DNA of 64,000 nt from assembly GCA_963763165.1 (NCBI GenBank), contig CAVXNV010000004.1, forward strand, positions 292,652 through 356,651, read 5' to 3'. The notes under the pieces are model-generated. The model was not told the origin of the DNA and ran no database searches. It worked only from the letters and a program-made list of their open reading frames with translations. Below, piece by piece: positions 4,451 to 64,000 of this stretch; position 1 is the first letter of the stretch; each line of letters opens with the position of its first letter. This DNA is from an uncultured Alphaproteobacteria bacterium (GTDB lineage Bacteria; Pseudomonadota; Alphaproteobacteria; Rhodobacterales; Rhodobacteraceae). The translations under genes and the position numbers were made by a program.

Positions 4451-4799
4451 GTGCGGTAGCGCTGGTCGAAACCAGGACCCGCGTTTCGTCCGGCCCCTCG
4501 ACGGCGAACGCACTGCGGCGGTTTTCAAACAGAACAGGTTCGGACAGCGCCTGATCCAGAAGCCGCTGGCGCCAATCCCCGGGCATGTCCGAAAGCTCAC
4601 CGCCGACAATCGGATTGAGATCCCTGCCAAAAACAGTGTAGCAGTCTCTGCCCTCATCGCCGCGGAAACGCAGCGCCGCGGCAGTCAGGCAGTATCCGAT
4701 AGTGCGCCGCTACTCGCAAGATCGCCGTCGCCACTTCGGGGCTTGACGTGATGATCCCGTTCCACGCGAATTCATCTTTTGCTCTCCGAGCGTTCCTGT

Positions 4800-7442: not shown

Positions 7443-7759
7443 TCGGCGTGATTGCGCACAGCGCTCGCGACGGACCAGAAGCAGGACTTTCTTACAGCGT
7501 GCTTACAGGACTCAAGTGCAGCGGACCCGATGACAAGGTCGGCAAACCGCCGCGCAGAAAGCCGGGCATTTGCTGCGCCAGTCTGTGGTGAAAGCTGAAA
7601 CTCCGACCTTGGCGAGCCTATTCTTCGGTTTACATACCTCTTGCTCTCCTTGTTCGCAAGGCACCGGCGAGGGCTGCCTGACCTCATTCAGTTCGATCTT
7701 TGCCGCTCGGCTTCCTCGACTTTCCGGCCGAACCTTGGAGACACATTCGCACCTCGAAT

Positions 7760-7877
7760 CCGATCGATGGGCCGGACCGCTTCCCAGAGATCATCCAGAG
7801 CATTGCCGTCAAGGACGGGCTCAAGAAACTTCAAGCCGCCGCCTGATCACGTCATCACCGACTTTTGGACATAGCTC
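7760..7877 (+). mobile_element. IS256-family 3' remnant
   Basis: Translation IDGPDRFPEIIQSIAVKDGLKKLQAAA* followed by the end-like sequence TCACCGACTTTTGGACATAGCTC. Confidence 0.6.
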
Positions 7878-8003
7878 CTTCCGGATCGGTGATGAGCTAT
7901 CCGAAGTTCCAGCAGTCCGGAATGGCGGAGGTGTTGAGACGATAGCTGTCCGCGCAGCTAGCCTCCGGCGAAAGCGGGGCGGTCCAGGCTCGGGAAGTAT
8001 TTG

Positions 8004-8033
8004 TTGACAGATTGTCGCACTGAGCCTTATCAT
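8004..8033 (+). promoter_or_regulatory. Sigma70-type promoter for the MCO operon
   Basis: TTGACA (8004-8009), 18-nt spacer, TATCAT (8028-8033); GGAGG RBS before ATG 8111. Confidence 0.55.
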
Positions 8034-8110
8034 CGCTCACTTACGACTCGCCGCCTCGTCTGTAGTCCTTACCCCCCAACTTCGAACACCTGAGACAATG
8101 GAGGTTCTCC

Positions 8111-11100
8111 ATGTCCGTTGCTGGCTGTTTGACCGTTTACCGCAAGGCTCATCTCCTGATCGGTGTAGTCGGCTTGTTGGCACATGCCACGGCATCGTAT
8201 CCAGAAACAGCTCAGATCGGCCCGCCCGATCAGGCCAGGTCCGGGTATTGCACCCGCGACAAGACTGTGGTCGCCCGCGTCGTTGCGCTGGAGCAGATGT
8301 ACATCTACAACCGCTTCGGCGCGTTCAACCCCGGTGGGATGCTCTATGCGCTGCGCCGCGATGTGGTGACCAGCGACGACAGCGATGAGCCGGCATTGGA
8401 CAATATCGGCACCGCGCTGGGTGATGGCGAAGCGATTCCGCCTGAACCCGATCCGGCGACCGATGCGTTGCTTGCGGGAAACGTGCGCTTGCGCCCCGAC
8501 AAGCGGCCGAGGCCGATCGTCCTCCGGGTAAACGAGGGCGACTGCCTGAAGGTCGTGTTCACCAACCTTCTCAGTCCTGACCGCGACGGCGAGGAACATG
8601 TGATCGACCCGGCGACGGGAGAGGAAATCTCCACCGATTCGGATGAACCTGCAACGCGGTCCGCCTCGATCCATGTGAACGGGCTGGAACTCTCGGGTAG
8701 CGTCGCATCGGATGGTACGAATGTGGGCTTCAACGAAAACTCGCTCGCTGACCCGGGCGAGACAAAGACCTACACATGGATTGCCAAGAAGGAGGGTGGC
8801 TTCCTGCTTTACTCGATGGCCGCCGCCGCCGGCGGAGAGGGCGATGGCGGGCAGCTTGGTCTCGGTCTTTTCGGCTCCGTCAATGTCGAACCGGCGGGAT
8901 CCACCTGGTATCGGTCGCAGGTCACGGAAGAGCAGCTCGCGGCATCGCGGGACATGAGCTTCTTGAACTCGGACGGCAAGAAGGGTCTATCGGACGGCGG
9001 CACCCCGGTCATCGACTACGGGTCCACGGACAGCGCTGGTATCCCGATTCTTGCCATGAACATGCCCTCCGATGACCCGGATGCGGCGCACGAGATCGTC
9101 CATTCCGACATCAACGCCATCATCGACGTGCGCGAGAATGGCGAAAAGTGCGACCAGATCCTCGGCCCCGGCTCAGCCTGCGGCGAGCCGTTCCGCGAAT
9201 TCACCGTGATCTTCCATGACGAGATCACGGCCGTGCAGGCGTTTCCGGAACTGGAGGACGAGGAGAACCCGATTTCCGCCCTGCGCGACGGCATGGGCAT
9301 CAACTATGGCGCGGCGGGACTTGGTGCGATGGTGCTGGCCAACCGCAAGGACATCGGCCCGGCCAAGGACTGCGCCGAATGCAAGCTCGAGGAATTCTTT
9401 CTGACCTCCTGGGCAATGGGCGATCCGGCGCTTGTGATCGAACGGGGGCCCGAAAACAAAGCTGTCGCCGCGCTCTATCCCGACGATCCCTCGAACGTGC
9501 ACCATTCCTACCTCGGCGACGCCGTGCGGTTCCGCAACATGCACGCCGGGCCGAAGGAGACGCATGTTTTTCACCTCCACGCGCATCAGTGGACGCAGGA
9601 CTGGCACGATCCGGATTCGGTCTACCTCGACAGCCAGACCATTTCTCCCGGTGCGTCTTTCACTTACGAAGTGCATTATGGCGGCTCCGGGAACCGTAAC
9701 CTGACGCCCGGAGACTCCATCTTTCACTGCCACCTCTACCCGCATTTCGCCCAAGGCATGTGGGAACTTTGGCGCACCCACGACGTGTTCGAGGCCGGCA
9801 CCGACGATCGCAGGCTTCCCGACGCCGAGATTGCCGGCGGCACACCGAATCCCGCCATCGTACCGCTGCCCGACACGCCGCTTCCGCCGATGCCGACCTC
9901 GGCCTTCGAGGGCTATCCGTTCTACATCGCCGGAATTGCCGGTCATCGACCGCCGCAGGCGCCACTCGATATAGATCCGGATGCCTACGCCGAGGATGCA
10001 AACCAGACCCTGATGCGCCACGTCGTCCTTTCAGGCGAACGCGAAGTCGGCGTGGAAGCCTTCGGCACCGACGCGAACGGCGATCCGAAGGAATTGGAGG
10101 CGAAGTATTTCGACACGGCCATCCCCGAGGATGACCCAATGGGTCAGGCGAACCGCATCGCAGCGCGGGTTCGCGCCGAGAATGCGAACGACGCGCTCTT
10201 CGGGCTGGCTGCCAAGCTGACGAAGGCCTGGATCAGGCGGTTGCCGCTCGACGGCACACCAGAAGAGCAGACGGCGATGGAGTTTCACGCCGGAACTGGC
10301 CCCGGCGCGGTGGAGATCGCACGGTCGAAATATGGCGTGCCGGAACGCGGCTATCCGAGCTGCATGTCGAACGGCACCTGCAACGGGCCGGCGAGTGACG
10401 TGTTCTTCCGCGTCAACGGCTATTCCCCGAAACCCGGCGCACCGTTCGCCGATCCATGCCCGACGCGGTTCTATCTCGGCAAGAAGGAAGACGACCCTGA
10501 CGATCCGGCGAAATGGGCGGGGCTTCAGCCAGAACGGAGATACCGCACGACCTATTTGCAATTCGACATGCCGGTGAACAAGCATGGCTGGCACGACCCG
10601 CAGGGACGCCTCATCGCGCTGGAAGAGGACGCGGCAAGCATTCTCGATCATACGCGCGCGCCGGAGCCGTTCTTCTTCCGCGCCAATTCGGGCGAGTGCA
10701 TCGTCTTTGAGGCGACGAACCTGATCCCCTCGAATCTAAACCTCGACGATTTTCAGGTGTTCACACCGACCGATACGATCGGCCAGCACATCCATCTGGT
10801 GAAGTTCGACGTGACCTCTTCCGACGGGTCCGGCAACGGCTGGAACTACGAAGACGGAACGTTCTCGCCCGATGAGGTTCGCGAACGGATTTTGGCCAAC
10901 AATGCCTTCAAGGGCACGGCGGAACTGCGGCCCTTGACCCACCGGCTGTTCCGCAATGGCGGGCCGCTGGCGGGCGATCCGCGCGGGCAATGTCCCGAAA
11001 GCCTGCCCGCCGATCCGACCGAGGCCGAGCATGTGCTGGCCGATCATCCGTGGTGCGGCGCGCAATCGACGATCCAGCGATGGTGGGCCGATCCGCTGCT

Positions 11101-13855: not shown

Positions 13856-13864
13856 GGGGGATGC

Positions 13865-15901
13865 ATGACCTATTCCGCCCATCTTGTCGCCATCGCCCTT
13901 GCGGTACTGGGTATTGTCCCGGCGAGCACGCAAGTCGACGACCCGCTCTCCCTCGGCGAGCTATGCGGCCCGCAGGATGGGCTCGGCCCGAAGCTTGGTA
14001 GTACGGACGATGCCCTTTCGACCGTCTTCGCCCGGCATAAAGATCACGAACCGCCACAGTTGCGTGGCGCGGGATGGGACGTTCCGCAAACCAGTGTCTT
14101 CGATCCGGCCACGGCCGTTAGCGAGCTTGCGGTCGCGGCGCTGACCGGCGGACAGGTCATCGCCGGAGAGGAAGCGCGCGTCACCCTTCGGATCACCGAT
14201 GGCGTGAGTGGACTGCCAGTGACAGGCCGCAGCGTCGCGGGCTGGATGCTCCTTCAGCGCAACGCCCAGGTCGCCGCAGAGATGCCGTGCAGCGCCAAGG
14301 CAACGCTCTTCACGCAAGGACGGGTGACGGCGCGGCCCGATGTCGATCTGAACGCCTCGAAGCTTCTGGTGCTGAACCGCGACGGAAGCATCGCCATCGT
14401 CAACCCGCAGGTGGATTTCACCATCACCCAGATGGAGGGCGTGATCCCGCTTCCGGGGGTCCCCGCCGACTGGGCGCTTGCCGAGGATAGTCAGACGCTT
14501 TTCGTGTCGCTTCCCATCTACGGGGCGGTCGCGGTGATCGACACGCGCAGCTTCCAGATGAGCGGCCTCATCGAACTTCCGAAGGGCAGCATGCCGACGC
14601 AACTGCTGCCGCTGTCGGACGGGGCGGTCGCGGTCTATCTCTCCGCCCACGGAGCGGTGACCATCGCGCGGCCTGACGGCACCGGGCAGACCGACCCCGT
14701 CGCGGTCGGGAGCGGTCCTGTGGCGATGGCCGAAGGGGCGTGGCGGCTGATCGTCGCTGCCTCGGGCAAACTGACCACAATCGACAGCGCGACCGGCGCC
14801 GTCGCGGCGGAAGCGGATATTCCGGCTGGCGAGCCTTCGCTTGCCATCGCGCCGGACGGTCTGTCGGTCTTTGTCACCACGGCCACCGCGACCGGAATCG
14901 AACGCCGCGACATCCGCGCGTTGAAGCTGCGCGGGACGGTGGCGGCCGAGCCTGGCGTCTTCGCACTGGCGCTTGAACCCGGACGCAGGCATCTCGTCGC
15001 CCTGAATCGCAAAACGGACCAGATGCTCCTGATCGACACGCGCACCGATACCGTCTCGGCGACGGGCCGGACGCCGCCCCAACCCGTCGAGGTCGCGTTC
15101 TCGCACGACTACGCCTATGTGCGCGGGCTGGAAGGCGACCATTTCAGCGTCTTCGAACTGGTGGAGCTGCGTCAGGGCAACCTTGTGCCTGTAGAGGTAC
15201 AGTCGGCTGCTGCACCCGTGACCCCGCGCGAGGCGTTGTCGCGCGCCCGGATGATCGCGCCCTACGGACATGGCGCGCTGGTGGGCAATGCCGACGAACA
15301 GGTGGCATATTATTACATGGAGGGCATGAACAGCCCGGTGGGCACGGTCAAGACCTACGGATCGAACGTGCAGGGGCTGATGACCATCGACCGGGGCTTC
15401 CGCGAAACCGCGCCGGGAGTCTACGAAACGACGGCGACGCTGCCTTTCGGCGGTGCCTATGACATTCCCGTCGCTATCGACGCGGACGGGTTCGTCACCT
15501 GTTTCGCCGCCACCGCACTGCCCGCCGCCAAAACCGAGGCGGAGGAAAACCGCACGGCGCTCCGGATCGAACCGGAGGCGCTGAATGGCATGGTCGCAGG
15601 AAGCCGCGGCGCGGTCGTGGTCCGGTTGATCGACGACAGCACCGGCCAGCCGGCCCTCGGTCTCAGGGACGTGCGGCTCCTCGCGTTTTTGCCGAGCGGC
15701 GGCTGGCAGGGCCGCAAGTGGGCCACCGACGTGGGGCAAGGCCGCTATGCCGTCGACTGGAAGTTTCCGAAGCCCGGCCGCTACGGCCTCAGCCTGCAGA
15801 TCGCTTCGGCAGGCATGGGATATGCCGATCAGCGTCCGGTATATTTCAACGTCGGAGCGCCGGGTGACGGCGTGTCCAAAGTAAGGGATGGTTCGCCATG
15901 A
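13865..15901 (+). CDS. Secreted YVTN/YncE-like beta-propeller protein with C-terminal Ig-like (YtkA-like) domain
   Basis: Signal peptide; repeated LFV..P..G.VAVIDT blades; C-terminal GRYAVDWKFPKPGRYGL; 9-nt gap after the MCO. Confidence 0.7.
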   Translation: MTYSAHLVAIALAVLGIVPASTQVDDPLSLGELCGPQDGLGPKLGSTDDALSTVFARHKDHEPPQLRGAGWDVPQTSVFDPATAVSELAVAALTGGQVIAGEEARVTLRITDGVSGLPVTGRSVAGWMLLQRNAQVAAEMPCSAKATLFTQGRVTARPDVDLNASKLLVLNRDGSIAIVNPQVDFTITQMEGVIPLPGVPADWALAEDSQTLFVSLPIYGAVAVIDTRSFQMSGLIELPKGSMPTQLLPLSDGAVAVYLSAHGAVTIARPDGTGQTDPVAVGSGPVAMAEGAWRLIVAASGKLTTIDSATGAVAAEADIPAGEPSLAIAPDGLSVFVTTATATGIERRDIRALKLRGTVAAEPGVFALALEPGRRHLVALNRKTDQMLLIDTRTDTVSATGRTPPQPVEVAFSHDYAYVRGLEGDHFSVFELVELRQGNLVPVEVQSAAAPVTPREALSRARMIAPYGHGALVGNADEQVAYYYMEGMNSPVGTVKTYGSNVQGLMTIDRGFRETAPGVYETTATLPFGGAYDIPVAIDADGFVTCFAATALPAAKTEAEENRTALRIEPEALNGMVAGSRGAVVVRLIDDSTGQPALGLRDVRLLAFLPSGGWQGRKWATDVGQGRYAVDWKFPKPGRYGLSLQIASAGMGYADQRPVYFNVGAPGDGVSKVRDGSP

Positions 15902-51650: not shown

Positions 51651-52064
51651 ATGGCTAAGGAATTAAGTGACCAAACTTTGTACATACTTCGCCACTTCGC
51701 AACAGGCGGGAGGTGCGGTGACCTGGCCCAAAAAGACCCCGGTATAAAATTAGCCTCGATTCGTCGCGCCCCTTTGGAAATGCTTCTGTTAGCCGAAGAG
51801 AAGTCAGAAAAAAAATGTTACAGCGTGCCGGATATTCGAGGAAAACACAAAAATGCCTACAAGCCTTGGACGGAAGAGGAGGAATCAGAACTCAAACGAC
51901 AATTGCATCACGGAACCGCGGTCGATCAGATCGCTGCCTCTTTGGGGAGGCAGCCATCTGCTATTCAGAGTCGGATTAGAAAGATCACTGAACCGCGCCG
52001 GATTTGCGGGAGGCTGATTGACGTTAGTTACGCGGCCACGGGTTCAGTTTCCAGAGCTGCGTAG
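51651..52064 (+). CDS. Low-GC hypothetical protein with Myb/SANT-like C-terminal HTH; 3' end supplied by the IS
   Basis: NAYKPWTEEEESELKRQLHHGTAVDQIAASLGRQPSAIQSRIRK; reading frame runs into the IS IR at 51989. Confidence 0.6.
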   Translation: MAKELSDQTLYILRHFATGGRCGDLAQKDPGIKLASIRRAPLEMLLLAEEKSEKKCYSVPDIRGKHKNAYKPWTEEEESELKRQLHHGTAVDQIAASLGRQPSAIQSRIRKITEPRRICGRLIDVSYAATGSVSRAA

Positions 52065-52936
52065 AAGTTTTCTTCGGCTTCTGCTGGCGGGATGTTCCCG
52101 ATAGGCTCGAGCAGGCGGCGGTTGTTGAACCAGTCGACCCATTCGAGTGTTGCGTATTCGACGGCCTCGAAGCTGCGCCACGGGCCGCGACGGTGGATGA
52201 CCTCAGCTTTGAACAGGCCGTTGATCGTTTCGGCGAGGGCGTTGTCATAGCTGTCGCCGACGCTGCCCACAGAAGGTTCGATACCCGCCTCTGCCAGCCT
52301 TTCGGTGTATTTGATGGACAGGTATTGGCTGCCTCGGTCGCTGTGATGCACCAGCCCCATGCCTTTGACCGGGCGACGTTCGTGGACCGCCTGTTCTAAT
52401 GCATCAAGGACGAAACCGGCGTGAGGGGAGGTGCTGACGCGCCAGCCAACGATCCTCCGAGCATAAGCATCGATCACGAAAGCCACATATGCGAACCCCT
52501 TCCAGGTTGCGACGTAGGTGAAATCACTGACCCACAGCATGTTCGGCGCGGGCACCCGGAACTGGCGGTTCACTTTGTCCAGCGGACAGGGCTGCTTTTT
52601 GTCGGGGATCGTCGTTCTGTGAGGCTTGCCTCGGATAATGCCCTGAATATCCATGTCCTTCATCAACCTCGCGACCGTGCAGCGAGCGACAGTAAAGCCC
52701 TCGCGGCGCAGCTGGTGCCAGACCTTGCGCACGCCGTAGACGCTCCAGTTCTCCTCGAAGACACGCCGAATCTCTGGCCGCATCGTCTCGTCCCGGCGCG
52801 CGCGATCCGACCACCGGGTTGGATCGGCCCTCTTGGCCAGATGATCATAATAGGTGGACGGGGCGATCGGCAGCACGTTGCAGATCGGCTCGACCCCGTG
52901 CGCATCACGATGCGCGTCGATGAAACCCACCATCAC
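52028..52936 (-). CDS. IS3 transposase OrfB (DDE)
   Basis: [26 protein letters not shown]. Confidence 0.95.
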
Positions 52937-53256
52937 TTCGACCGGCGGTCGAGCTCCGCCAGCGCAAAATAAGCCGACGCCTTGCGCAGTATCTCATTTG
53001 CCTGGCGCAGCTCGCGGTTCTCGCGTTCCAACGCCTTCATGCGCTCGGCCATCTCGCTGGAGACGCCCGGACGCTTGCCGCCATTGACCTCGGCCTTCTT
53101 GACCCAGTCGTTCAGGGTCTGGGGTGCGCAGCCGATCTTCGCCGCAATCGACATAATCGCCTGCCAACGCGACCCGTGCTGACCCTCATTGTCGAAGACC
53201 AGTCGCACCGCGCGTTCACGCACTTCAGGGGAAAACTTGTTCGTTGTCTTGTTCAT
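52933..53256 (-). CDS. IS3 transposase OrfA
   Basis: [17 protein letters not shown]; [23 protein letters not shown] zipper; GTGATG overlap with orfB. Confidence 0.95.
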
Positions 53257-53400
53257 GATGCTCCATCCTAATCAGGAGTTGGAGCCTCCGGCAAACCCGG
53301 CGCGGTTCACCTCTTCGGGCGAAGGCTTGAGGCCACAAGCCCAGGGACTGCTGCTTCGATCGGTTTAGCCGCTATGGTCAAGCTTCCTCTCGCAAACTCC

Positions 53401-54735
53401 CTAATCGAGCCGCTCAAGCACGCGCGCGAGCATGGTCAGAAAATGGTCGGCATTCTCCCGCGTAAAGATCAGCGGGGGCCTGATCTTCAGAACGTTGGCG
53501 GTTTTCGCACAGCCGGAGATCAAGACACCCTCCTCACGAAGACCGTTGATCACGGCGGTTGCAGTGGCCGCATCGGGGGTCTTCCGGACGCGATCGGAGA
53601 CCATTTCGACGCCGATGAACAGTCCCGCGCCACGAACGTCGCCGATGCTGTCGTGGCGCTCGGCGAGCGCTCTCAGACCCTCACGCATGTGGTCGCCGAT
53701 TGACCGGGAATTCTCCAGAAGCCCCTCGTCCTCGATCACGTCCAGGACCGCGGAAGCGGCGGCCACGGCCACGGCGTTGCCCCCAAATGTATTGAAGTAC
53801 CGCGCCTTGCGGCCAAATTCCTGGACCAGTTCGGGGCGGACCGCGACGCCAGCGACAGGATAGCCGTTCCCCATAGGCTTGCCCATGGTAACGATGTCAG
53901 GGATCACGTCATGGCGCTGGAAGCCCCAGAACGCGTCGCCGGTGCGCGCGAAGCCGGATTGAACCTCATCGGCAATATAGAGCGCTCCGGCCCCGTGGGC
54001 GGCTTCAACAGCCCCTTTCAGGAACCCGGCTGGTGAATCAAAGACACCGTCACTGGCGAAGATGCCATCACAGATGAAAAACGCGGGCCTGATGCCGTGG
54101 CGCTTGAGGTCGGCAAAGGCAGCGGCGACGGACTCGGCGAAGCGCTCCGGCATTGCGGCGCCCATGCGATAGGTGTCCGGCGCAGGCACGGTCCTGACGT
54201 GTGGTCCGAGGTCGACATTTTCGCCAAGCGACGGTGAGAATTCGGAGACGCTCTGCGTGATGCCGTGATAGGCGGTCTCCGTGACCACGATGCCGACACC
54301 GCCGGTACAGGCCTGAGCGATCCGGCATGCCAGGTCATTGGCGTCCGAGCCGGTGCAGGTGAACATCATGTGGCCGATGGCGTCGGGCATGGTTGCCAGC
54401 AGGCGCTCGGCGTAGTCGAGAATGGTGCCGTGGATGTACCGTGTGTTCGTGGCAAGCACGCCTGCCTGCGTGGCGATGGCCTCCACCACCTTGGGATGGC
54501 AATGCCCGATGGATGTGACGTTGTTGTATGCATCTAGGAAGGCGCTGCCTTCGGGATCAAAGAGCCAAGCGCCTTCGCCGCGAACAACATGCAGGGGCTT
54601 CTTGTAGAATAGACGATATGCCGGGCCGAGGAGGTCTCGACGACGGTCGATCATCCGACGGGTGTCAGGGTCGAGCTCGGAAGCGCCTTCTTGGAAGGCA
54701 TTGACCATGCCAGTATCGCTGTTCATGTCCGTCAT
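53401..54735 (-). CDS. Class III PLP enzyme (ETNPPL/PHYKPL phospho-lyase or GABA-aminotransferase-like)
   Basis: LDAYNNV..GHCHP, TNTRY, CTGSDAND, YHG, IADEVQSGFAR.G, VTMGKPMGNG, YFNTFGGN; ATGA-coupled to the kinase. Confidence 0.9.
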   Translation of the reverse strand: MTDMNSDTGMVNAFQEGASELDPDTRRMIDRRRDLLGPAYRLFYKKPLHVVRGEGAWLFDPEGSAFLDAYNNVTSIGHCHPKVVEAIATQAGVLATNTRYIHGTILDYAERLLATMPDAIGHMMFTCTGSDANDLACRIAQACTGGVGIVVTETAYHGITQSVSEFSPSLGENVDLGPHVRTVPAPDTYRMGAAMPERFAESVAAAFADLKRHGIRPAFFICDGIFASDGVFDSPAGFLKGAVEAAHGAGALYIADEVQSGFARTGDAFWGFQRHDVIPDIVTMGKPMGNGYPVAGVAVRPELVQEFGRKARYFNTFGGNAVAVAAASAVLDVIEDEGLLENSRSIGDHMREGLRALAERHDSIGDVRGAGLFIGVEMVSDRVRKTPDAATATAVINGLREEGVLISGCAKTANVLKIRPPLIFTRENADHFLTMLARVLERLD

Positions 54736-55814
54736 TCCATGTCGCAAGCGCGCAAAAGGGCGCGGGTAACATCTTGGGTGGGGAGTGTCGCAAAGCGCAG
54801 CATCGCATCCCTGGCCGGCCCGTTGTTCCGAAGAATGTAATCGGCGTTCTCCGGATAGCGTGCGGCGCGCCAGGTCGTGATGGTTATCGAGGCCACGAGC
54901 CGCGCGACGATCAGATCCCGAAGCAGCACGACCTCCTCTTTCAGCAAAGGGGTCGCAACGTGATAGGCCGATACCATCCGCGTCACCGCGTCCAGGGGCT
55001 GCGCTTCGCTGGCGAGGTAGGAAGCAGCGACCGCGACGTCGATGGCGAGGTGGGTGTGCACCATGTCGCCGAAATCGAGCACTCCGGAAATGCGATCGGG
55101 TGCGTCAGGATCGACAAGGATATTGTGATGGTTCATGTCGTTGTGAACCACCTGCTGCCGCAAGCGAGACAGCGGAGTTTGGGCCTCGGATCCGAACCGT
55201 GCGAGTTCGGTGCGTACCATTTTCCCTATCTCGTCATTCTCAAGGACGTCGGTCAGAGGCTGAAGTCGAGGCAGGTTGCGGATATCCCACAGCAGATCAT
55301 GGTGTGCCCCTGGGTGGTCAAAGCGGGCCAATGCATGTCCGAGGCGGGCAAGCACGGTGCCGATCTCTGACTGCATCGCCCGGGTGATTCCGATACGGTG
55401 CAGGGGGGTTCCGTCAAGCCAGCTGAGAACCCGTCCGATGCTGGTGCGACCGTCTGGCAGGGTCACGGGGACGCAATAGAGGCCACTCGATGCCGCCACG
55501 GTGCGCGGAAGCGGCAGGGCGGGGTCGACCTTTTCGACCCAGCGCAGCGCAGCTGTCTGGAAATCGGTATTCTCGGGATCCTCGACCGGGTTCGAAAGCT
55601 TCAACACGAAGCCGGGGCCGTCTGCAGCAGTGATCCGGAAATTCTGGTCGCGTTCGCAGGCGATCTCCTGAGCGTGCCCCTGGATGCCCCAATGTGCCTG
55701 TAGAAGCTCCTCGGCTTGAGCACTGGTGACGCGCGGCGGCGCGCTCGACAGAAGTCCTGCAAGGAGCGGGTCCGTCGCAATTGCGGAATCGTCGAGATGA
55801 AGACTATCAGGCAC
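54732..55814 (-). CDS. APH-fold phosphotransferase (hydroxylysine kinase-like)
   Basis: ERDQNF, VLKLSN, WLDG, LLWD, HNDMNHHNIL, LDFGD; start GTG 55814 or TTG 55820 overlapping the pxpC-like stop. Confidence 0.88.
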   Translation of the reverse strand: MPDSLHLDDSAIATDPLLAGLLSSAPPRVTSAQAEELLQAHWGIQGHAQEIACERDQNFRITAADGPGFVLKLSNPVEDPENTDFQTAALRWVEKVDPALPLPRTVAASSGLYCVPVTLPDGRTSIGRVLSWLDGTPLHRIGITRAMQSEIGTVLARLGHALARFDHPGAHHDLLWDIRNLPRLQPLTDVLENDEIGKMVRTELARFGSEAQTPLSRLRQQVVHNDMNHHNILVDPDAPDRISGVLDFGDMVHTHLAIDVAVAASYLASEAQPLDAVTRMVSAYHVATPLLKEEVVLLRDLIVARLVASITITTWRAARYPENADYILRNNGPARDAMLRFATLPTQDVTRALLRACDME

Positions 55815-56781
55815 GTTCAAGAACCTCGGGGCGCGTTTTTTGGTCGATTGCGGCGCGAAGCGCGCCTGCCTCGGCGCGATCGACGCGCCGGAAGCGGAGA
55901 ATCTCGTCCGGCTTGGCCTGGGCGAGCTTCCAGAAGGCTGCACTGGCCACCGTAAACGGATTGATAAATCCCCCCGTGCTCGGCGAGTCGTTTACGAGGA
56001 TGATGGGTGTCTGCCCTGCAAGGTTTATTGCCCCCATAGGATATCCGTGATCGACGATGTTCGAAGGGTCCTGGCCGTGATCCGGCGACTTGTTCAATGC
56101 CTTTTCGGAGAACCTGAACTCCGGGCCCGTGAGCCGCAGGCCGGTTCTGCTGCTCTTGGCCTGCAGTGTCCAGTCCGACGAAAAGAAGGCCTCGACGGTC
56201 TCGTCGCTGAGCCAGTCGTCGTTCGGCCCGGCGAGGGCTTCGATCTCCCAGTGGCGGTCGGCCGCGATTTCAGGGCGCGCTATCTCGGGGATCGTAAAGA
56301 GTTCGGAGGCGGTGCTGTCACCGACGGGGATGCTCTGACCGCTTACGAGGGCGCGGCCGCCGACACCTGCCTGGTGGAAAACCGCGCGCGACCCCATTAC
56401 TGGGTCCGTCGCGATGCCGCCGGAAACGGCGATGTAGCTTCTTGCACCCGTTCGCGCAAACGACAGGGTCAACGTCTGCCCGGCGCGAACGGGTACCGTC
56501 GCGAACATGGGAACCGGCTCTCCGTTCAGCTCCGGAGACATGTCGCCACCCGTTATCGCAACAAGCAGATCGGCCTCAAAGGTCAGTGTCGGACCGATGA
56601 ATTGGCACTCGAGCGCCGCGGTGTCGCGATCGTTGCCGACAAGGATGTTGGCCTGACGGAAGGACCAGGCATCGAAGGGGCCTGAGATCGGGAAACCCTG
56701 CTCAAGGAAACCCTCTCGGCCAGGAAGCTCCTGGACGCACGTCTGCAGACCCGGTTTGACCGTGGTGATGCTGCGGCTCAT
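55807..56781 (-). CDS. PxpC/AHS2-like carboxyltransferase-fold subunit
   Basis: PGLQTCVQELPGR.G, SGPFD, ANILVGN, R.YIAV.GG, SSRTGLRL, GQTPIIL..D.PSTGG. Confidence 0.88.
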   Translation of the reverse strand: MSRSITTVKPGLQTCVQELPGREGFLEQGFPISGPFDAWSFRQANILVGNDRDTAALECQFIGPTLTFEADLLVAITGGDMSPELNGEPVPMFATVPVRAGQTLTLSFARTGARSYIAVSGGIATDPVMGSRAVFHQAGVGGRALVSGQSIPVGDSTASELFTIPEIARPEIAADRHWEIEALAGPNDDWLSDETVEAFFSSDWTLQAKSSRTGLRLTGPEFRFSEKALNKSPDHGQDPSNIVDHGYPMGAINLAGQTPIILVNDSPSTGGFINPFTVASAAFWKLAQAKPDEILRFRRVDRAEAGALRAAIDQKTRPEVLERA

Positions 56782-57644
56782 GCGGAAGCCTCCTGCTGTA
56801 CCCTGGCCCATTCGAGATAGCGATCGACCGAGAAGACCTGATAATCGATGATGTCATGGCGGAAGGTACCTTCAGTCACACGGGCCTCGATTTCGCGGTA
56901 TTCATCGCGTTCCACCGGAACGAAGCGGACACGGTCCCCGGCCCGGAACAGGGCAAGGCTATCCCGGAAATCCGGAAGCCGTTGGTCTCCGTCATACATC
57001 GGCGCCGGCGTGTGTCCAACAAGTTGGTAGCCGCCCGGCGTGTCGTCGGGATAGATGCAGGTGAGGGCACCTCCGATTCCGACCGCCCCCTTGGGGGTCT
57101 GCGTCCTCGGGGGATTGTACTTGGGTGCGACGATCCGTGCCTCGGGCCTGAGTGCCAGAAGAGAGCAGAGGCCCGGCCAGAAACCGAGAGCCGCGACCCA
57201 GTATTCGGTGGAGGCATGCCGCCTTTTCAGCGCGTCGCGGTCGGACAGCCCGTTCAGTTCACAAACAAGGTCTGGATCAGGTGTCTTGTCGGGGTAGTCC
57301 TTGCGGTATCGTTCCACGCAGGCTTCGGTCTTGTCGTCGAAATAGAGGACAGGGATAGTGATCAGGCGACTTGCAAGCGCGCCCGTCACGCCGCGACCCA
57401 CCGCCGTATAGAGCGCTTCAATTTCAGAACAGAGATCCTCGTAGGAGATGCGGTCCGGGTCATAGTTGACCTGGAAGGAGGCGAGTTCGGGTATCAGGTC
57501 GATCAACCCGTCTATCTTCGCAGCACGCACTTCTGCGACCAGGCGATGGACGATGAAGTTGATCGTGAAATCCATCCCGTCGCCGAGCTCGACTTCGATC
57601 GCGCGATCGCCACCGGGGAAAAATCGAGGAGACTCATGAAGCAT
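56778..57644 (-). CDS. PxpB/AHS1-like subunit (long, 288 aa)
   Basis: GDRAIEVELG, IPELASFQVNYDP, ITIPVLY, ALGFWPG, TPKGAVGIGG, TPGGYQLVG.TP, GDRVRF. Confidence 0.88.
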   Translation of the reverse strand: MLHESPRFFPGGDRAIEVELGDGMDFTINFIVHRLVAEVRAAKIDGLIDLIPELASFQVNYDPDRISYEDLCSEIEALYTAVGRGVTGALASRLITIPVLYFDDKTEACVERYRKDYPDKTPDPDLVCELNGLSDRDALKRRHASTEYWVAALGFWPGLCSLLALRPEARIVAPKYNPPRTQTPKGAVGIGGALTCIYPDDTPGGYQLVGHTPAPMYDGDQRLPDFRDSLALFRAGDRVRFVPVERDEYREIEARVTEGTFRHDIIDYQVFSVDRYLEWARVQQEASA

Positions 57645-57838: not shown

Positions 57839-58495
57839 ATGAAAAAGATCGAGCACCAGTCTTTGAGCGACCGGGCCTACAGTGAGATCCGGGAGGGGCT
57901 GCGAGAGGGGTTCTTCGCGCCGATGGAACCTCTCGTCATTCGCACGCTCGCTGCAGAATATGGTATTTCGGCAACCCCGATCCGGGAGGCCTTGCAGCGA
58001 CTTGTGGCCGAGCGTCTTCTGATGGTGTTGCCGAGCCGATCAATCGTCGTGCCGCGCATGACCCAGAAGCGGTTCCGGGAGTTGATGCCGATCCGGGAGT
58101 CTCTGGAGGGTATGGCGGCGGTGTTGGCAGCAGAGCGGAGTTCCGAGGAGGAGATCCAGGCGCTGACCGCGCTCACCAGCGAAGTCGAGGCTGCTGCGGA
58201 TGATCGTGACTCCGCTAGGTATCTGGCCTTGAACCGTGAATTCCATTTCAAGATCTATGAGGCGGCCCGAAATCCCGAGTTACTTCAGCTCATCGGCGAT
58301 CTTTGGTTGAAGGTCGGACCCGTCTTCACCGGGCTTTTCGACGACGACTATTTCAAGGAGCACGCGAACGACGAGCACCGCAATATTCTCGCGGCCATTG
58401 CGCGCCGGGATGCGGATGCGGCTGGTCGATACATGCGTCGGGACATCAGTATTGCGGCGCAGGCTCTGCTTCCGCTCATGCCCGAGGCTGCCTGA
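57839..58495 (+). CDS. GntR/FCD-family regulator
   Basis: SLSDRAYSEIREG...LAAEYGISATPIREALQRL; FCD NREFHF and EHRNILAAI. Confidence 0.95.
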   Translation: MKKIEHQSLSDRAYSEIREGLREGFFAPMEPLVIRTLAAEYGISATPIREALQRLVAERLLMVLPSRSIVVPRMTQKRFRELMPIRESLEGMAAVLAAERSSEEEIQALTALTSEVEAAADDRDSARYLALNREFHFKIYEAARNPELLQLIGDLWLKVGPVFTGLFDDDYFKEHANDEHRNILAAIARRDADAAGRYMRRDISIAAQALLPLMPEAA

Positions 58496-58716: not shown

Positions 58717-59451
58717 ATGGTTACGATCAATTGCGACATGGGCGAAGCCTTCGGGATCTATTCGTTCGGCGACAACTCCGTCTGCATGCCCTACGTGACG
58801 CATGCCAACGTGGCCTGCGGGTTTCACGCCTCTGACCCTGTTGTCATGCGGGAGACAGTCCGCAAGGCGAAGGCGGCCGGGATTCAGGTCGGCTCCCATC
58901 CCGGGTTGCCTGATCGCGAGGGTTTCGGTCGCCGCCGCATGCAGATGCGGCGTGATGAGATCTCGGCCTTGGTCATCTACCAGACCGGCGCGCTCCAGGC
59001 CTTCGCAGCGTCCGAGGGTGTAACGCTTTCCCATATCAAGCCTCACGGCGCGCTTTTCGGGATGGCACAAAACGAAACCGAGGTGGCGGAGGGGATCGCC
59101 GACGCCGCCGAGGTTCTGGGGCTTCCCGTCATCGCATTTTCCGACTGCTGCATGTCGGACGTTTTCTCCCGTCGCGGGATTCCTTTTTCCTGCGAGTTTT
59201 ATGCGGATCTCGAGTATGATGATGCAGGGCGTCAGATCATCTCGCGCGTGCATGCGGAAGTCGACCCGGAAGCGGTCGTCGCAAAGGTTCGCCGCGCGGT
59301 GCGTGATGGGACGACGACTTCGGTCTCAGGTAAGGAGGTGGCTGTCGTGGCTCAGAGTATCTGCGTTCATTCGGATACCCCGAATGCCGTGTCCGTGGCG
59401 CGGGCCGTGCATGCGGCGCTGAGCTCCGACGGACTCCTCGACGCGACATGA
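58717..59451 (+). CDS. LamB/YcsF (PxpA-like) lactam utilisation subunit
   Basis: INCDMGE, ANVACGFHASDP, GSHPG..DR.GFGRR, HIKPHGAL, EFYAD..Y, ICVHSD. Confidence 0.93.
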   Translation: MVTINCDMGEAFGIYSFGDNSVCMPYVTHANVACGFHASDPVVMRETVRKAKAAGIQVGSHPGLPDREGFGRRRMQMRRDEISALVIYQTGALQAFAASEGVTLSHIKPHGALFGMAQNETEVAEGIADAAEVLGLPVIAFSDCCMSDVFSRRGIPFSCEFYADLEYDDAGRQIISRVHAEVDPEAVVAKVRRAVRDGTTTSVSGKEVAVVAQSICVHSDTPNAVSVARAVHAALSSDGLLDAT

Positions 59452-60923
59452 TCGCCGTGCGGACCAAAACGGGCGCGGCCCTCCAACAGGCGCTCGCAGA
59501 TGGACTTGCGCCGGTTTTGCGTGCAATCTCCGGGGGGCTTGGCCCCCAGGGGCGTGCAGCGGTCTATGCCGTGGGGCAGGATGTCCGGCGCGCGGAGACA
59601 GGTACCGAGATCGCCCGGCGTTTCACCGGAAGCGGCGCCGCCGAGGTGCTCCTGAAGGAAGCGCTGGTTGCAGCCGAGAGGGACCTCGGAGATGGTTCTT
59701 CCCGTCTGGCGGTGATGGCCGGTGCGGCGCTCCACGCGGGACGGAAGTCGCTTGCGGCAGGCATTCATCCCGCACAGCTCCATCGCGCCGTCAAGGCACT
59801 CGGCGCTGAGCTCGACGGGCATTTTGCGACCCTCACGAACCCTGACCCACGGGTTCAGGAAGTGCTTCGCGCGGCAGGGCTGCAAGCCTCCGCCGCGGCC
59901 GAGCTGGAGCGGGCACTTCGCCTGGCCGGTGAGGGGGGGCATGTCGAGCTGACCGCGACCCCGGAGCCTGGCCTGCGTCTCGATCACGTCGAGGGGTTCT
60001 CGGCCGATATGACGCCGCTTCTTTCGGGCGAACTGGGGCACATGGATCATGTGCATGTCCTGGTGGCCAACGACATCATTGTGGATTTCCGCAGACTTGC
60101 CCCTGTCATCGAAGGGTTCGCGCGCAGCGACAAGTCGCTGATCATCGCGGCCCGCGGCATCGAGGGGGCGGCGAAACAGCTGCTTGAGCGGAACCGGCAA
60201 GCTGGCGTGCTGCGCGTGGCGGCGCTGACTCCGCGGGATGCGGGGCCCCGGGCGGTCGAAATCCTGAAGGATCTTGCCTGCGCCACGGGCGCCATGCTCG
60301 TGGACGACGAAACCGGCCAGTCCCTTGAGACGCTCACACCTGCTCACCTGGGCTCGGCGGCCACGTTCCGTCGTTCGGGTACGCGCGTGACCTTCGTAAA
60401 GCCGGCAGGGGCGCCCGAGGATGTCGCCGCCCGGCTGAAGGACGTCGAGCATGACATCGGGCGGCATCGATACCTCGCGCTCGACCGCGAACATGCGCAG
60501 CGTCGGCACGCGCGCCTGTCGGGCAAGTGGGTCGAGCTGTTGGTGGGACCGGATCGAACCGATCCGGCGCGTGTCGATCGGATGTCGCGTGCCTTGGCCG
60601 CGGTGCGCTCGGCGCAGTCCGGGGGCACGATCGCCGGTGCGGGCGCGGGACTTGCCGAGGTGGCAGCGCTAATTGAGCCCGAGCAATCCGCTGACCCGGC
60701 TGAGCGCGCCGCGCGCCGTCTCGTGGCGCAGGCCCTCCGCGCTCCGGGACGATGCCTGCGACGCAATGCGGGGCTGGAGGCTTTGGACGGGATCTTGCCC
60801 CACGAGGGATTGGCCGATCCGGCGCGTCTCTCCCGCGACCTTTACGACATCTCGCTCTCGCTGGCCCTGCAACTTCTGAGCCTCGAAGCTGCAGTGCAGC
60901 CTGCGCATCGCACTTCTTGCTGA
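59448..60923 (+). CDS. Highly divergent GroEL/Cpn60-like protein (491 aa)
   Basis: Colinear with GroEL: LGPQGR (LGPKGR), LLKE...GDGSSR (GDGTTT), AAGIHP..L.R, VEG, LIIAARGIEG, LKDLACATG, DREHAQRRHARLSG, GLADP (GILDP); ATGA overlap with pxpA. Confidence 0.88.
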   Translation: MIAVRTKTGAALQQALADGLAPVLRAISGGLGPQGRAAVYAVGQDVRRAETGTEIARRFTGSGAAEVLLKEALVAAERDLGDGSSRLAVMAGAALHAGRKSLAAGIHPAQLHRAVKALGAELDGHFATLTNPDPRVQEVLRAAGLQASAAAELERALRLAGEGGHVELTATPEPGLRLDHVEGFSADMTPLLSGELGHMDHVHVLVANDIIVDFRRLAPVIEGFARSDKSLIIAARGIEGAAKQLLERNRQAGVLRVAALTPRDAGPRAVEILKDLACATGAMLVDDETGQSLETLTPAHLGSAATFRRSGTRVTFVKPAGAPEDVAARLKDVEHDIGRHRYLALDREHAQRRHARLSGKWVELLVGPDRTDPARVDRMSRALAAVRSAQSGGTIAGAGAGLAEVAALIEPEQSADPAERAARRLVAQALRAPGRCLRRNAGLEALDGILPHEGLADPARLSRDLYDISLSLALQLLSLEAAVQPAHRTSC

Positions 60924-60962: not shown

Positions 60963-62045
60963 ATGACCGAAATGCATCCCGAACCCATGCTCGAGGTTGC
61001 GAATGTCGTGCACAAGTACGGGCGGGTCACTGCGCTGTCCAACGTCTCGCTGTCGGCCGGCAAGGGCGAATTCCTTACCATTCTGGGCTCCAGCGGCTCC
61101 GGCAAGACCACCCTTTTGCGGGTCATCTCCGGCCTGGAGATACCATATTCCGTCGATCGCTTGCGCATCGGCGGTGAAGATGTCGTCGGCCTTCCCGCGG
61201 CGAAGCGCAACTGCACCACGGTATTTCAAAATTACGCCCTGTTTCCGCACATGAACGTGATCGAGAACGTGGCCTACGGCCTGAAAATCCGCGGGCGCGC
61301 GCCGCGCGATGCGACTCGCCTGGCCCGGGAAGCGCTCGAGATGGTGCAGCTTGGCAGCAAGGCGGACAGGTCCATCCGCCAGTTGTCAGGCGGTGAGCGG
61401 CAGAGGGTGGCGCTGGCGCGGGCGGTGGTGACGCGCCCGGCCGTCCTTTTGCTCGATGAGCCGCTGGGGGCCCTCGATGAAAGGCTGCGTCAGGACATGC
61501 AGCTCGAGTTGATGGAACTGCAGCGCAAGCTCGACATGACGTTCGTCTATATCACGCACAGCCAGGAGGAAGCCCTGACCATGAGCGACCGCGTCGTGCT
61601 GATGCGGAACGGCCGGATCGAGCAGAGTGGCAGGCCGCTCGAGCTGTTCGACCGTCCGGTCACGCGGTTCGCGGCGGACTTCATGGGCTACGAGAATATT
61701 CTTTCCGGGCGACTTCTGAAACGAGACGCCGACATCGGCCAGGTCGAGCTCGAGGGCGGCGCGGTGATGCAAGGCACGCTCGCCACCTCTGAGGCACAGC
61801 CGGGCAGCTCCGTGAACATCGCGGTACGCGCGGAACGCATCGGGGCGGTCGGGCCCGGCGAAGAAGGCATAGGCGGCACCCTGGGGACACGTATCTACCG
61901 GGGCAAGTACACGGACATGCTGCTCGACACCGCGGCTGGAACCCTGCGCCTGCGGAGTTGGCACGGGGCACCGGGAGAAGACGAGGCCCTGACACGGGTC
62001 GGCTGGAAACCGGGCGATGCCGTCATCTTCCCCGAACACGCGTGA
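60963..62045 (+). CDS. ABC ATPase, PotA-like
   Basis: GSSGSGKTT, VFQNYALFPH, LSGGERQR, LLLDEP, ITHSQEEA, TOBE-like C-terminus. Confidence 0.95.
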   Translation: MTEMHPEPMLEVANVVHKYGRVTALSNVSLSAGKGEFLTILGSSGSGKTTLLRVISGLEIPYSVDRLRIGGEDVVGLPAAKRNCTTVFQNYALFPHMNVIENVAYGLKIRGRAPRDATRLAREALEMVQLGSKADRSIRQLSGGERQRVALARAVVTRPAVLLLDEPLGALDERLRQDMQLELMELQRKLDMTFVYITHSQEEALTMSDRVVLMRNGRIEQSGRPLELFDRPVTRFAADFMGYENILSGRLLKRDADIGQVELEGGAVMQGTLATSEAQPGSSVNIAVRAERIGAVGPGEEGIGGTLGTRIYRGKYTDMLLDTAAGTLRLRSWHGAPGEDEALTRVGWKPGDAVIFPEHA

Positions 62046-62126: not shown

Positions 62127-63335
62127 ATGAAGGACAAGTTTTCCACTTTCGACCAGATTGAGCTGACGCGGCGCGGCATGTTGCGCGGCATGAGTGCTCT
62201 TGCCGGAACGGCGGCGCTTGGCGCGGCGGGATTTGCTCCGCGCAGCCTTGCCGCACAGGACATGCCTTTGGTGAAGGCCTATGGCGTTCCGACCGCCGCG
62301 CTGAAAGACTGGTCTCCCATGGAGGCCAGCATCGGGGTGCGGTGCGAACTGAACGGTACCTCCAACGATGTCGGTGTCTTCATGCGCGACATCATGGCGT
62401 CGAACCTCGGCGAGACCACCGACATCTATATCTTCGAGAGCGGCACCGAGGACATCCTCGGGCCGCGTGGGCTCTATGCCAAGATCGACCCCGAGCATCC
62501 TGAACTGAAGCTCTGGGAGCGGACCTCCGACAGCTGGAAGCGGTCGCCGGTGGTGACCGATGCCGAAGGTACCCAATGGGGCGTTCCGGTGATCGGCAAC
62601 GCGGACAGTTTCGGCTACGTGCCCGAAGCACTCGGTCTCGATCCCGACAGCGAGGAAGAGCTTTCGTGGTCGCTGATGTTCGTGGACGAGGAGACCCGCG
62701 GGCGTGTCGCCTATGGTCAGGGCTGGACGTATTCGATGCCGTCTGCGGCGCTTTATCTCAAGGCGACGGGCCAGGCTGAGATTGAAGACGTCGCGGACAT
62801 GACACCGGAGGAGGCGACCGTCGTGGCGGACTTCCTCGTCGAGCGAAAGCGCGCTGGTCAGTTCCGGACTCTTTACGGCGCCTTCGAGGAGCAGATCCAG
62901 CTTCTGACCAACAAGGAAGTGGATGTCATCAACTGCTGGGAGCCTGCGGTCCGCGAAGCCAATGCCGTTCTTGGGCCGGATGCCACGAGGTATGCCTATA
63001 CCAAGGAAGGCTACTTCAAGTGGGGGCATGGGGCCTATGTGGCGGCACCAGCGATGGAGCGGGACAACGTCGACGCAATCTACAAGGTGCTCAACTACTT
63101 CCTGGATGGCGAATACCGTGCGCTGCAAGCGCGGGATCGCGGTTATGCCGGTCCGAACATGGATCTCGGCGTTGCCTATGCAGAGGAACAGGGGTGGTCC
63201 GAAGAGGAGATTGCGGCGCTGAAGGCAACCGAGGCCAAGGTGAACCGGAAGTTCGAAAAGCCCTTCACCTCCACGACGACTCCGCAGAACGCTTCGGAAA
63301 TCGAGGAGCAGTGGCAGCGTTTCCTCAACGCATGA
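62127..63335 (+). CDS. ABC substrate-binding protein (PotD/F-like) with Tat signal
   Basis: TRRGMLRG twin-arginine leader with AxA-type site; YAYTKEGYFKWGHG, YKVLNYFL. Confidence 0.88.
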   Translation: MKDKFSTFDQIELTRRGMLRGMSALAGTAALGAAGFAPRSLAAQDMPLVKAYGVPTAALKDWSPMEASIGVRCELNGTSNDVGVFMRDIMASNLGETTDIYIFESGTEDILGPRGLYAKIDPEHPELKLWERTSDSWKRSPVVTDAEGTQWGVPVIGNADSFGYVPEALGLDPDSEEELSWSLMFVDEETRGRVAYGQGWTYSMPSAALYLKATGQAEIEDVADMTPEEATVVADFLVERKRAGQFRTLYGAFEEQIQLLTNKEVDVINCWEPAVREANAVLGPDATRYAYTKEGYFKWGHGAYVAAPAMERDNVDAIYKVLNYFLDGEYRALQARDRGYAGPNMDLGVAYAEEQGWSEEEIAALKATEAKVNRKFEKPFTSTTTPQNASEIEEQWQRFLNA

Positions 63336-63431: not shown

Positions 63432-64000
63432 ATGACGATGGACGCCGAGATGGATGCGGATATGGCTCGGACGGAGGCGGGCAGGCGGCGGACCCGCAAG
63501 GGGCGCCGCATCCCGCCCGACCAGCTTGCCCTTTGGGCAATCTGCCTTGGATGGGCCGTGCTCGTCATTGTGCCCCTGATCATCCTCTTGGTCTTCAGTT
63601 TCTTCAGTACCGAGTATTTTCAGACGGTTTACGAACCGACACTCGATACCTGGAAGGGGCTCTTCGCGTCCGGCCGCTGGGAGGTGACGCTGCGGACGCT
63701 GCGGATCGCCTTGACCGTGACGCTGATCGAGCTCGCAGTCGGGTTCCCGTTCGCGCTCTGGCTCGCAAAGGGCACGAAGAACAAGCCGACCCAGGCGGTC
63801 TTGCTGGCCCTTCTGACGATCCCCTTCTTCCTCGACCTGTCGTCGCGCACAATCGTCTGGCGCGCGATCCTCGGGCAGAACGGGTTGATCAATACAGTCC
63901 TGGTCTCTACCGGCTTGAGTGACGCCCCGCTCGACTGGTTGCTCTACACCGAATTCTCGGTGCATTTCGGTATGATACCGGCACTTTTTCCGCCAATGGT
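63432..64000 (+). CDS. ABC permease PotB-like (partial, runs off the window)
   Basis: Absent from the ORF track because it has no stop in the window; ATG 63432 gives ...IVPLIILLVFSF...TLRIALTVTLIELAVGFPFALWL...LTIPF...R..WRAILGQNGLIN. Confidence 0.9.
   Translation, partial: MTMDAEMDADMARTEAGRRRTRKGRRIPPDQLALWAICLGWAVLVIVPLIILLVFSFFSTEYFQTVYEPTLDTWKGLFASGRWEVTLRTLRIALTVTLIELAVGFPFALWLAKGTKNKPTQAVLLALLTIPFFLDLSSRTIVWRAILGQNGLINTVLVSTGLSDAPLDWLLYTEFSVHFGMIPALFPPM

Follow-up and report, generated by a model that had tools for sequence, protein, structure and literature searches.

We analysed a stretch of 64,000 nucleotides (the window) from an uncultured Rhodobacteraceae bacterium (assembly GCA_963763165.1, contig CAVXNV010000004.1, positions 292,652 to 356,651 of the forward strand). 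Toward its 3' end lies a gene for a relative of the chaperonin GroEL, hereafter the Cpn60-like gene, an intact open reading frame (ORF) of 491 amino acids (P0001; 59448–60923, plus strand). The initial annotation had read it as a degenerate, ATPase-dead GroEL paralogue without GroES, coupled into a lactam-utilization and transport operon. Residue losses throughout its family support the degenerate, GroES-less character. Across genomes the gene travels with an ATP-binding cassette (ABC) importer, and a component of this importer is the client that we tentatively favour.

The ATG of the Cpn60-like gene and the TGA of the LamB/YcsF (PxpA-like) gene before it overlap in the sequence ATGA (59448–59451), and 39 nt separate the Cpn60-like stop codon from the ATG of a PotA-like ABC ATPase gene (60963). 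Both spacings agreed with the initial annotation. A GAGGAA Shine-Dalgarno site precedes the ATPase start, and no terminator-like site was found between the Cpn60-like stop and this start. The window contains two divergent operons flanking a GntR/FCD regulator, and homologues of PxpA, PxpB and PxpC are all present. The features of the region were the following:

51989–53309, minus strand: IS3-family insertion sequence (IS) element with 27-nt terminal inverted repeats and two transposase ORFs
53313–53375, minus strand: remnant of a biotin carboxyl carrier protein (BCCP) gene, its first ~17–21 codons, cut by the IS element
53401–54747, minus strand: class-III pyridoxal phosphate (PLP) enzyme of the O-phospho-amino-alcohol phospho-lyase type (5g4i, E 5e-105)
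54732–55943, minus strand: APH-family kinase, longest ORF
55807–56811, minus strand: PxpC-like subunit (CT_A_B / KipA-type)
56778–57644, minus strand: PxpB-like subunit (CT_C_D / KipI-type)
57839–58495, plus strand: GntR/FCD-family regulator
58717–59451, plus strand: LamB/YcsF (PxpA-like) lactamase subunit (NF003814, 258 bits, cut-off 226)
59448–60923, plus strand: Cpn60/GroEL-like paralogue (Pfam, profile and structure model)
60963–62045, plus strand: PotA-like ABC ATPase with a TOBE domain, directly 3' of the Cpn60-like gene in nearly all loci
62127–63335, plus strand: periplasmic binding protein of 402 amino acids with a twin-arginine signal and a weak likeness to the PotD/PotF/YdcS fold
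63432–64000 and beyond the window end, plus strand: first ABC permease (PotB-like), with the second permease after the window end

The true start of the kinase lies probably further downstream, because its relatives have 355–365 amino acids. The PLP enzyme also matched the human ethanolamine-phosphate phospho-lyase ETNPPL (6tor, E 9e-103). In the 18 kb past the window we found two permeases, a metallo-beta-lactamase-fold gene, another ABC system, ksgA, surA and lptD.

The Cpn60-like protein is a full-length group-I chaperonin fold of the Cpn60/TCP-1 superfamily. With the Pfam hidden Markov model Cpn60_TCP1 (PF00118) it scored 72.7 bits, against a cut-off of 34.3, in agreement with the initial assignment. 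The NCBIfam GroEL models gave 133–155 bits, all far under their cut-offs of 352–582 (best score 154.9 bits vs. 352; TIGR02348, 133 vs. 582). The profile of the family aligned with solved GroELs over the full length, residues 7–481 on 8–520 (E ~1e-62). In the AlphaFold2 (AF2) model (pLDDT 89, pTM 0.83) the strands of the intra-ring sheet (N-terminal, C-terminal and stem-loop) were predicted. Foldseek gave this model a TM-score of 0.85 to GroES-bound cis-ring GroEL chains and 0.57 to apo GroEL. The modelled monomer resembles the nucleotide/GroES-bound, domain-closed GroEL with an elevated apical domain far better than the apo form. Its closed conformation may come from an intermediate domain that is constitutively “closed” (e.g., through an R398–D87 pair), or from a habit of the modelling.

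The residues of the ATP and GroES cycle were compared in a MAFFT alignment, using E. coli GroEL numbering. In the window protein, the phosphate loop GDGTTT (86–91) became GDGSSR (T89S, T90S and T91R), K51/D52 became E/T, and the catalytic D398 was replaced by an arginine (RMSRAL). From the ATP-hydrolysis set (D52, D87, T89–T91, D398), D87 is the sole residue unchanged. About 30 equatorial residues (~462–489) were deleted, among them N479/A480, which contact the adenine in GroEL, and the inter-ring residues S463/V464, while R452 and E461 were kept. S463 and V464 are two of the four inter-ring contacts altered in the single-ring mutant SR-1 (PMC3813556). The 199–204 loop was replaced or deleted. 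At the client and GroES positions, Y199 was replaced by P, L234 by A, L237 by I, L259 by K, V263 by E and V264 by R, Y203 and F204 were deleted, and the groove of helices H and I is polar. The C-terminus is ...QPAHRTSC, with the GGM tail absent. All the changes that had been listed from a manual comparison, from GDGSSR, E/T and D398R to the 199–204 loop, the ~30-residue deletion and the missing GGM, were borne out by this alignment.

The same positions have changed family-wide. Over 80 members, we counted T91R in 71, T90A in 61 and the replacement of D52 by T or S in 59. D398 became R in 51, and A, S or K in most others, and residues 479–481 were deleted in 68 of the 80. From the GroES and client contacts, Y199 was replaced by P or A, Y203/F204 were deleted, and V263 and V264 became E and R. 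Retained were G32, P33, G53, G414 and G416, as well as D87 (78/80), G88 (80/80) and D495 (79/80). The outer sub-clades kept the 476–489 hairpin and often D52, and none of them had D398; position 91 was occupied in them by S, A or L, and position 398 by K, N, R or E. In E. coli GroEL, the D398A mutant retains ~2% of the ATPase activity (PMC3813556).

Tblastn with the genome's own GroES detected no GroES-like ORF in the window, as had been noted before, and no groES was found within 10 kb on either side of any of the ~50 Cpn60-like loci. The only groES of the genome pairs with a canonical groEL on another contig (C11). Judged by its sequence, the Cpn60-like protein is almost certainly ATPase-dead and unable to run the GroEL ATP/GroES cycle.

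A word-indexed search gave 45 clusters of relatives, with 44–66% identity. An exhaustive HMMER search gave 56 representatives at E ≤ 1e-30, beyond which came ordinary GroELs with 25–28% identity. In a tree built from anonymous representatives, 39 of them formed a fully supported clade and three more small groups joined outside it; the GroEL of the same genome and that of E. coli were placed far away. Orthologues (31–67% identity) were found in ~50 loci from Alphaproteobacteria (Rhodobacterales, Hyphomicrobiales, Acetobacteraceae, Sphingomonas and Geminicoccaceae) and a few Betaproteobacteria (Paraburkholderia and a metagenome-assembled genome (MAG) of Gallionella). Their existing names are “TCP-1/cpn60 chaperonin family protein”, “chaperonin GroEL” or “hypothetical”, and we found no curated NCBIfam model covering the clade.

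Three proteins of the representative library (P0093, P0124 and P0157; 682–716 amino acids) joined an N-terminal TIR domain (CAP12/Pycsar-type or TIR_2) to a full-length Cpn60. Such fusions, possibly with a role in defence against phages, have no relationship to the Cpn60-like clade. Natural fusions naming a partner of the Cpn60-like protein were considered and discarded: the long Cpn60s in the library were all TIR-Cpn60 or tandem Cpn60 proteins, outside the clade.

The Cpn60-like ORFs were intact in ~45 loci, with 465–527 amino acids. Their dN/dS ratio ranged from 0.14 to 0.36 (Nei-Gojobori, 11 orthologue pairs), that of the neighbouring enzyme and transporter genes from 0.03 to 0.15. The Cpn60-like protein was the fastest-evolving of the island, with a mean Kimura distance of 1.15 vs. 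0.32–0.53 for most neighbours. Its best conserved part was the apical domain (mean top-residue frequency 0.60; helix H 0.71), and the least conserved were helix M, the site of D398 in GroEL, and the intermediate domain. Family-specific invariant motifs occur in the clade. The helix H/I sequences followed the phylogeny, with no split by the type of enzyme encoded nearby. The clade is under purifying selection, constrained though fast.

The loci came from 14 encoding contigs that were looked up, from one genome per species (33 loci) and from metagenomes (nine loci), and all were screened by tblastn with the island proteins. Nearly every informative locus had the order pxpA, Cpn60-like gene, ABC ATPase, binding protein, permease, permease, with genes for PxpB, PxpC, the kinase, the phospho-lyase, BCCP and biotin carboxylase near this core. 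In ~40 loci pxpA was directly upstream of the Cpn60-like gene, overlapping it by 4 nt or at most ~26 nt apart. On the other side, the Cpn60-like gene was followed by the ATPase, the binding protein and the two permeases in the window, L001–L004, L010–L042, L046–L050 and L059–L067. In L011 the Cpn60-like and ATPase genes overlap by 4 nt, and in L036 the gene right after the Cpn60-like gene is that of the binding protein.

Three loci had exchanged their enzymes. L042 (Bradyrhizobium sp. dw_78), L048 (Rhodopseudomonas palustris) and L050 had no Pxp, kinase or phospho-lyase genes, and encoded instead a class-I/II aminotransferase, HyuA, HyuB, an Asp/Glu-racemase-like protein and a MocR regulator (~2500–15700 in each). 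HyuA and HyuB are the hydantoinase/oxoprolinase type of ATP-dependent lactamase. All three kept the Cpn60-like gene, followed by the ATPase, the binding protein and the two permeases known from the Pxp-type loci. Whether the tree was built from the binding proteins or from the Cpn60-like proteins, these three loci were nested among those of the Pxp type, indicating that the enzymes were exchanged, with the Cpn60-like gene and the importer staying together. In L050 the Cpn60-like gene came directly after hyuA-hyuB-racemase, in one operon. Further, pxpA was displaced in two loci: in L047 the Cpn60-like gene had the BCCP gene on one side and the aminotransferase gene on the other, with pxpA ~7.5 kb downstream, and in L046 pxpA was found beyond the regulator, not adjoining the Cpn60-like gene.

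The swapped enzymes and the displaced pxpA show that the constant partner is the importer, or a part common to both island types, and not PxpABC. The initial annotation had proposed a helper for the PxpABC-like complex. The co-occurrence with LamB/PxpA, PxpB and PxpC that this implies was found in most loci, but an exclusive tie fails in L042, L048 and L050, which have no Pxp genes, and in the displaced L047. What is inherited together, within a horizontally scattered island, is the Cpn60-like gene and the PotABCD-like importer.

The island is rare. An orthologue of the binding protein was present in one of 401 sampled Rhodobacterales genomes, the one of the window itself, and none was found in 12 other species of the same genus. 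Homologues of the phospho-lyase were present in 130 of the 401 genomes. In the 26 best phospho-lyase carriers no Cpn60-like gene was found; these had a two-gene module of kinase and phospho-lyase, without Pxp genes and without importer. Such stand-alone pairs, with up to 75% identity to the window copy, were seen for example on G549:C1, G730:C1 and G557:C1 (L055–L058). Among these Rhodobacterales genomes there was no informative case of a natural knockout, that is, a Pxp-type island without the Cpn60-like gene.

The binding protein of the importer had no sequence match in Pfam, NCBIfam or PDB. Its AF2 model was of low confidence (pLDDT 57), with weak Foldseek matches to PotD, PotF, YdcS and MotA. 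The protein opens with a twin-arginine signal (TRRGMLRG in the window, ARRDFLKG in L042). The signal n-region had the consensus M-x-D-K/R-F/L-S-T-x-x-Q-x-E/D-L-S/T-R-R in 36 of 36 Cpn60-linked binding proteins; in this motif, MKDKFSTxxQxELTRR, the residues D3, S6, Q10 and L13 and both arginines were invariant. Conservation was 0.76 in the n-region, 0.54 in the h-region and 0.80 in the mature part. Three paralogues without a Cpn60-like neighbour (L051, with 64% identity, L053 and L054) had the two arginines, and the motif was absent. The 36 Cpn60-linked proteins formed one clade (97 SH-aLRT).

Together, these results could be explained by a Cpn60-like protein that needs neither ATP turnover nor GroES and acts as a specific binder. 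The apical domain, with its more polar, family-specific helix H/I groove, would do the binding, as a holdase or an escort. Because the enzymes are swappable while the Cpn60-like gene and the importer stay, the client would most likely be a component common to the Pxp-type and Hyu-type islands. The importer is then the most likely client, and the precursor of the binding protein the first candidate. We consider this reading plausible and prefer it, although we would stop short of calling it probable.

Due to its signal for twin-arginine translocation (Tat), the binding protein must fold in the cytoplasm before export, and at this stage the Cpn60-like protein could hold or proofread it. The n-region of the signal, which is unusually well conserved, might be recognized through the remodelled helix H/I groove. 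This would be analogous to the redox enzyme maturation proteins (REMPs), which recognize the Tat signal sequences of single pre-proteins (PMC3316669). The more specific proposal, of a bacterial group-I chaperonin fold turned into an ATP-independent escort and proofreader for the Tat export of one binding protein, through its MKDKFSTxxQxELTRR signal, is possible but doubtful. The island as a whole would serve to take up a cyclic amide and to open its ring at the expense of ATP. Its enzyme set would consist either of PxpABC, BCCP, biotin carboxylase, kinase and phospho-lyase or of HyuA/HyuB, a racemase-like protein and an aminotransferase.

Several points weigh against the binding-protein precursor as client, whose choice draws on synteny and on the conserved signal. 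The motif goes back to the same one origin as the Cpn60-like gene, and thus their co-occurrence may be due to shared descent rather than coupling. The paralogues of the binding protein work without a Cpn60-like gene, so that the fold needs none in general. The mirror-tree partial correlation with the binding protein was negative (−0.21), compared with 0.51 for the ABC ATPase, 0.44 for the phospho-lyase, 0.41 for PxpC and −0.06 for PxpA, all of them unreliable values from 11 loci. The ATGA overlap or the gap of a few nucleotides between pxpA and the Cpn60-like gene in the core clade fits PxpA as a partner equally well. We know of no chaperonin-fold Tat escort. Further, D87, G88, G32/P33, G414/G416 and D495 are retained, and so some nucleotide or anion binding is possible.

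The state of the local island adds to these points. In relatives, the BCCP and biotin carboxylase genes come after the phospho-lyase gene; the window has no biotin carboxylase gene. Having lost both to the IS3 element, the island here may be out of use. Its pathway may be crippled, or may rely on paralogous BCCP and biotin carboxylase genes on contig C7 of the same genome. There, a second LamB-BCCP-biotin carboxylase-PxpB-PxpC cluster (C7:447690–451920) has 38–64% identity to the island proteins of Thioclava, and carries neither a Cpn60-like gene nor an importer of the island type. The genome also has a paralogous pair of kinase and phospho-lyase (C3:91552–93789), whose phospho-lyase was recovered as two overlapping tblastn pieces, suggesting a frameshift or a pseudogene.

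The strongest competitor is that the protein assembles or holds the ATP-dependent hydrolase of the cyclic amide itself, be it PxpA, the complex of PxpABC with BCCP and biotin carboxylase, or HyuAB in the variant islands. The position of pxpA directly upstream in ~40 loci, often with the 4-nt overlap, fits it, and so does L050, with the Cpn60-like gene behind hyuA-hyuB-racemase. Dedicated chaperonin genes beside enzyme clusters are established, for example MimG and BmoG (PMC11825192), and homologues of PxpB and PxpC assemble with biotin-dependent carboxylases into multi-protein complexes (PMC13012033). The two types of lactamase are alike in being large, ATP-dependent and composed of several subunits. 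However, PxpABC and HyuAB have unrelated folds, and a single specific binder, polar in its groove and lacking the ATP cycle, would have to serve both, with helix H/I sequences that show no split by enzyme type. The Cpn60-like genes of L046 and L047, which do not adjoin pxpA, the contig C7 cluster, which has none, and the near-zero PxpA correlation (weak, with its 11 loci) also speak against it. We regard a lactamase client as a serious but rather unlikely possibility, less likely than the importer, and yet give it about equal weight with the escort of the Tat precursor in particular. A further alternative is that the fold was repurposed as a scaffold, sensor or small-molecule binder, in which the remodelled pocket (R91, R398, D87, D495) holds an anionic ligand. 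This could be an unhydrolysed nucleotide, a ring-opened acid or a phospho-intermediate, and the protein would regulate or dock on the ABC ATPase, or channel substrate. The replacements in the pocket are conserved and non-random (R91 and R398 in the 71 and 51 members counted above), with D87, G88 and D495 retained. The gene lies directly upstream of that of the ABC ATPase, overlapping it in L011, and the ATPase had the top mirror-tree correlation, itself weak. The AF2 model is nearest to nucleotide/GroES-bound GroEL, but this conformation may be a modelling preference. Positions 91 and 398 vary among the outer groups, which keep D52 and the 476–489 hairpin; this looks like several decay routes of one site rather than a newly formed one. 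The lowest conservation was that of helix M. The ligand binder, already contemplated in the initial annotation, was weakened by this variation between sub-clades and by the better conservation of the apical domain, and we consider it improbable.

Two other explanations had been raised for the gene. A decaying, functionless duplicate of groEL would fit the fast evolution of the protein, the missing BCCP and biotin carboxylase genes of the window island, and damage in three loci. In L018 (Roseovarius sp. PS-C2; 9236–9940) pxpA is missing and the Cpn60-like gene is truncated at its 5' end, an IS6-type transposase having taken their place. The MAG locus L044 has an internally deleted Cpn60-like gene (244 amino acids) and fragmented permease genes. 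In L052 (G300) the binding-protein gene has a stop codon, and there is a helix-turn-helix/transposase-like insertion. L044 lost the binding protein along with the Cpn60-like gene, which carries no weight as evidence, several genes being broken there, or the MAG poorly assembled. Decay is largely refuted by the intact ORFs and the dN/dS values, which show the purifying selection that the initial annotation had left to be checked, and the invariant motifs and the confident AF2 model also argue against it; we find it very improbable. An ordinary chaperonin of the MmoG/PrmG/MimG type would serve a soluble di-iron monooxygenase cluster nearby. Such an enzyme was absent from the window itself and from the 18 kb downstream, where the initial annotation had envisaged it, and no monooxygenase families were found in the Pfam-annotated neighbourhoods of the 14 looked-up loci. 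The genomic context rules this type out for the window locus, and its likelihood is close to nil.

The Cpn60-like gene marks a rare mobile catabolic island, which combines an ATP-dependent lactamase with an amino-alcohol kinase and phospho-lyase, or has a hydantoinase-type variant. The island is small and genetically tractable in cultured strains of Thioclava, Roseovarius and Rhodopseudomonas; its culturable carriers include Thioclava sediminum, Roseovarius pacificus DSM 29589 and Rhodopseudomonas palustris. A whole clade, under purifying selection down to ~30% identity, gave up the catalytic aspartate, the phosphate-loop threonines, the binding groove and part of the equatorial domain. It thereby offers a natural experiment on the uses of the chaperonin fold without the ATP cycle. 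Dedicated GroEL paralogues in catabolic clusters are known; what appears to be new is a clade, predicted as ATPase-dead and GroES-less, that is tied to an importer. We found no paper linking PxpA or LamB/YcsF, or Pxp/Hyu clusters, with a chaperonin.

Bacterial GroEL paralogues are generally taken as working, ATP-driven chaperonins with altered client ranges. With GroEL/Cpn60 itself, the Cpn60-like protein shares the three-domain fold over the full length, the predicted intra-ring strands, the structural glycines, D87, G88 and D495. It differs by the replacement of D52, T90, T91 and D398, by the loss of N479/A480 and S463/V464 in the core clade, by the lost hydrophobic helix H/I and 199–204 contacts, by the absence of GGM and of an adjacent groES, and by scores under all GroEL cut-offs. 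GroEL2 and GroEL3 of Chlamydiae are also divergent GroEL paralogues with altered functional residues (the GroEL3_Chlamy model gave 56 bits, cut-off 600), but they are related at the superfamily level only and occur in another genomic context and another taxon. MmoG, BmoG, MimG and PrmG are likewise divergent GroEL-like proteins encoded in a catabolic cluster, and presumably serve that cluster only. The Cpn60-like gene is set apart from them by its context of an ABC importer and an ATP-dependent lactamase, without monooxygenase, and by the loss of the catalytic aspartate and of the GroES-binding groove; the monooxygenase-linked chaperonins are regarded as working chaperonins.

With the REMPs (TorD, DmsD, NapD) we propose an analogy in function, as both would be cytoplasmic proteins encoded beside one Tat-exported protein with a conserved signal region. 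Their fold is unrelated, the Tat substrate of the island is not a redox enzyme but a PotD-like binding protein without cofactor, and its binding is putative. In eukaryotes, BBS6, BBS10 and BBS12 and the CCT-like domain of PIKfyve kept the chaperonin fold for assembly or scaffolding after their ATPase had diverged. These belong to the group-II (CCT-type) chaperonins, and to our knowledge no bacterial group-I counterpart has been described. If our reading is true, the Cpn60-like clade would be the bacterial counterpart of these eukaryotic chaperonin-like assembly factors.

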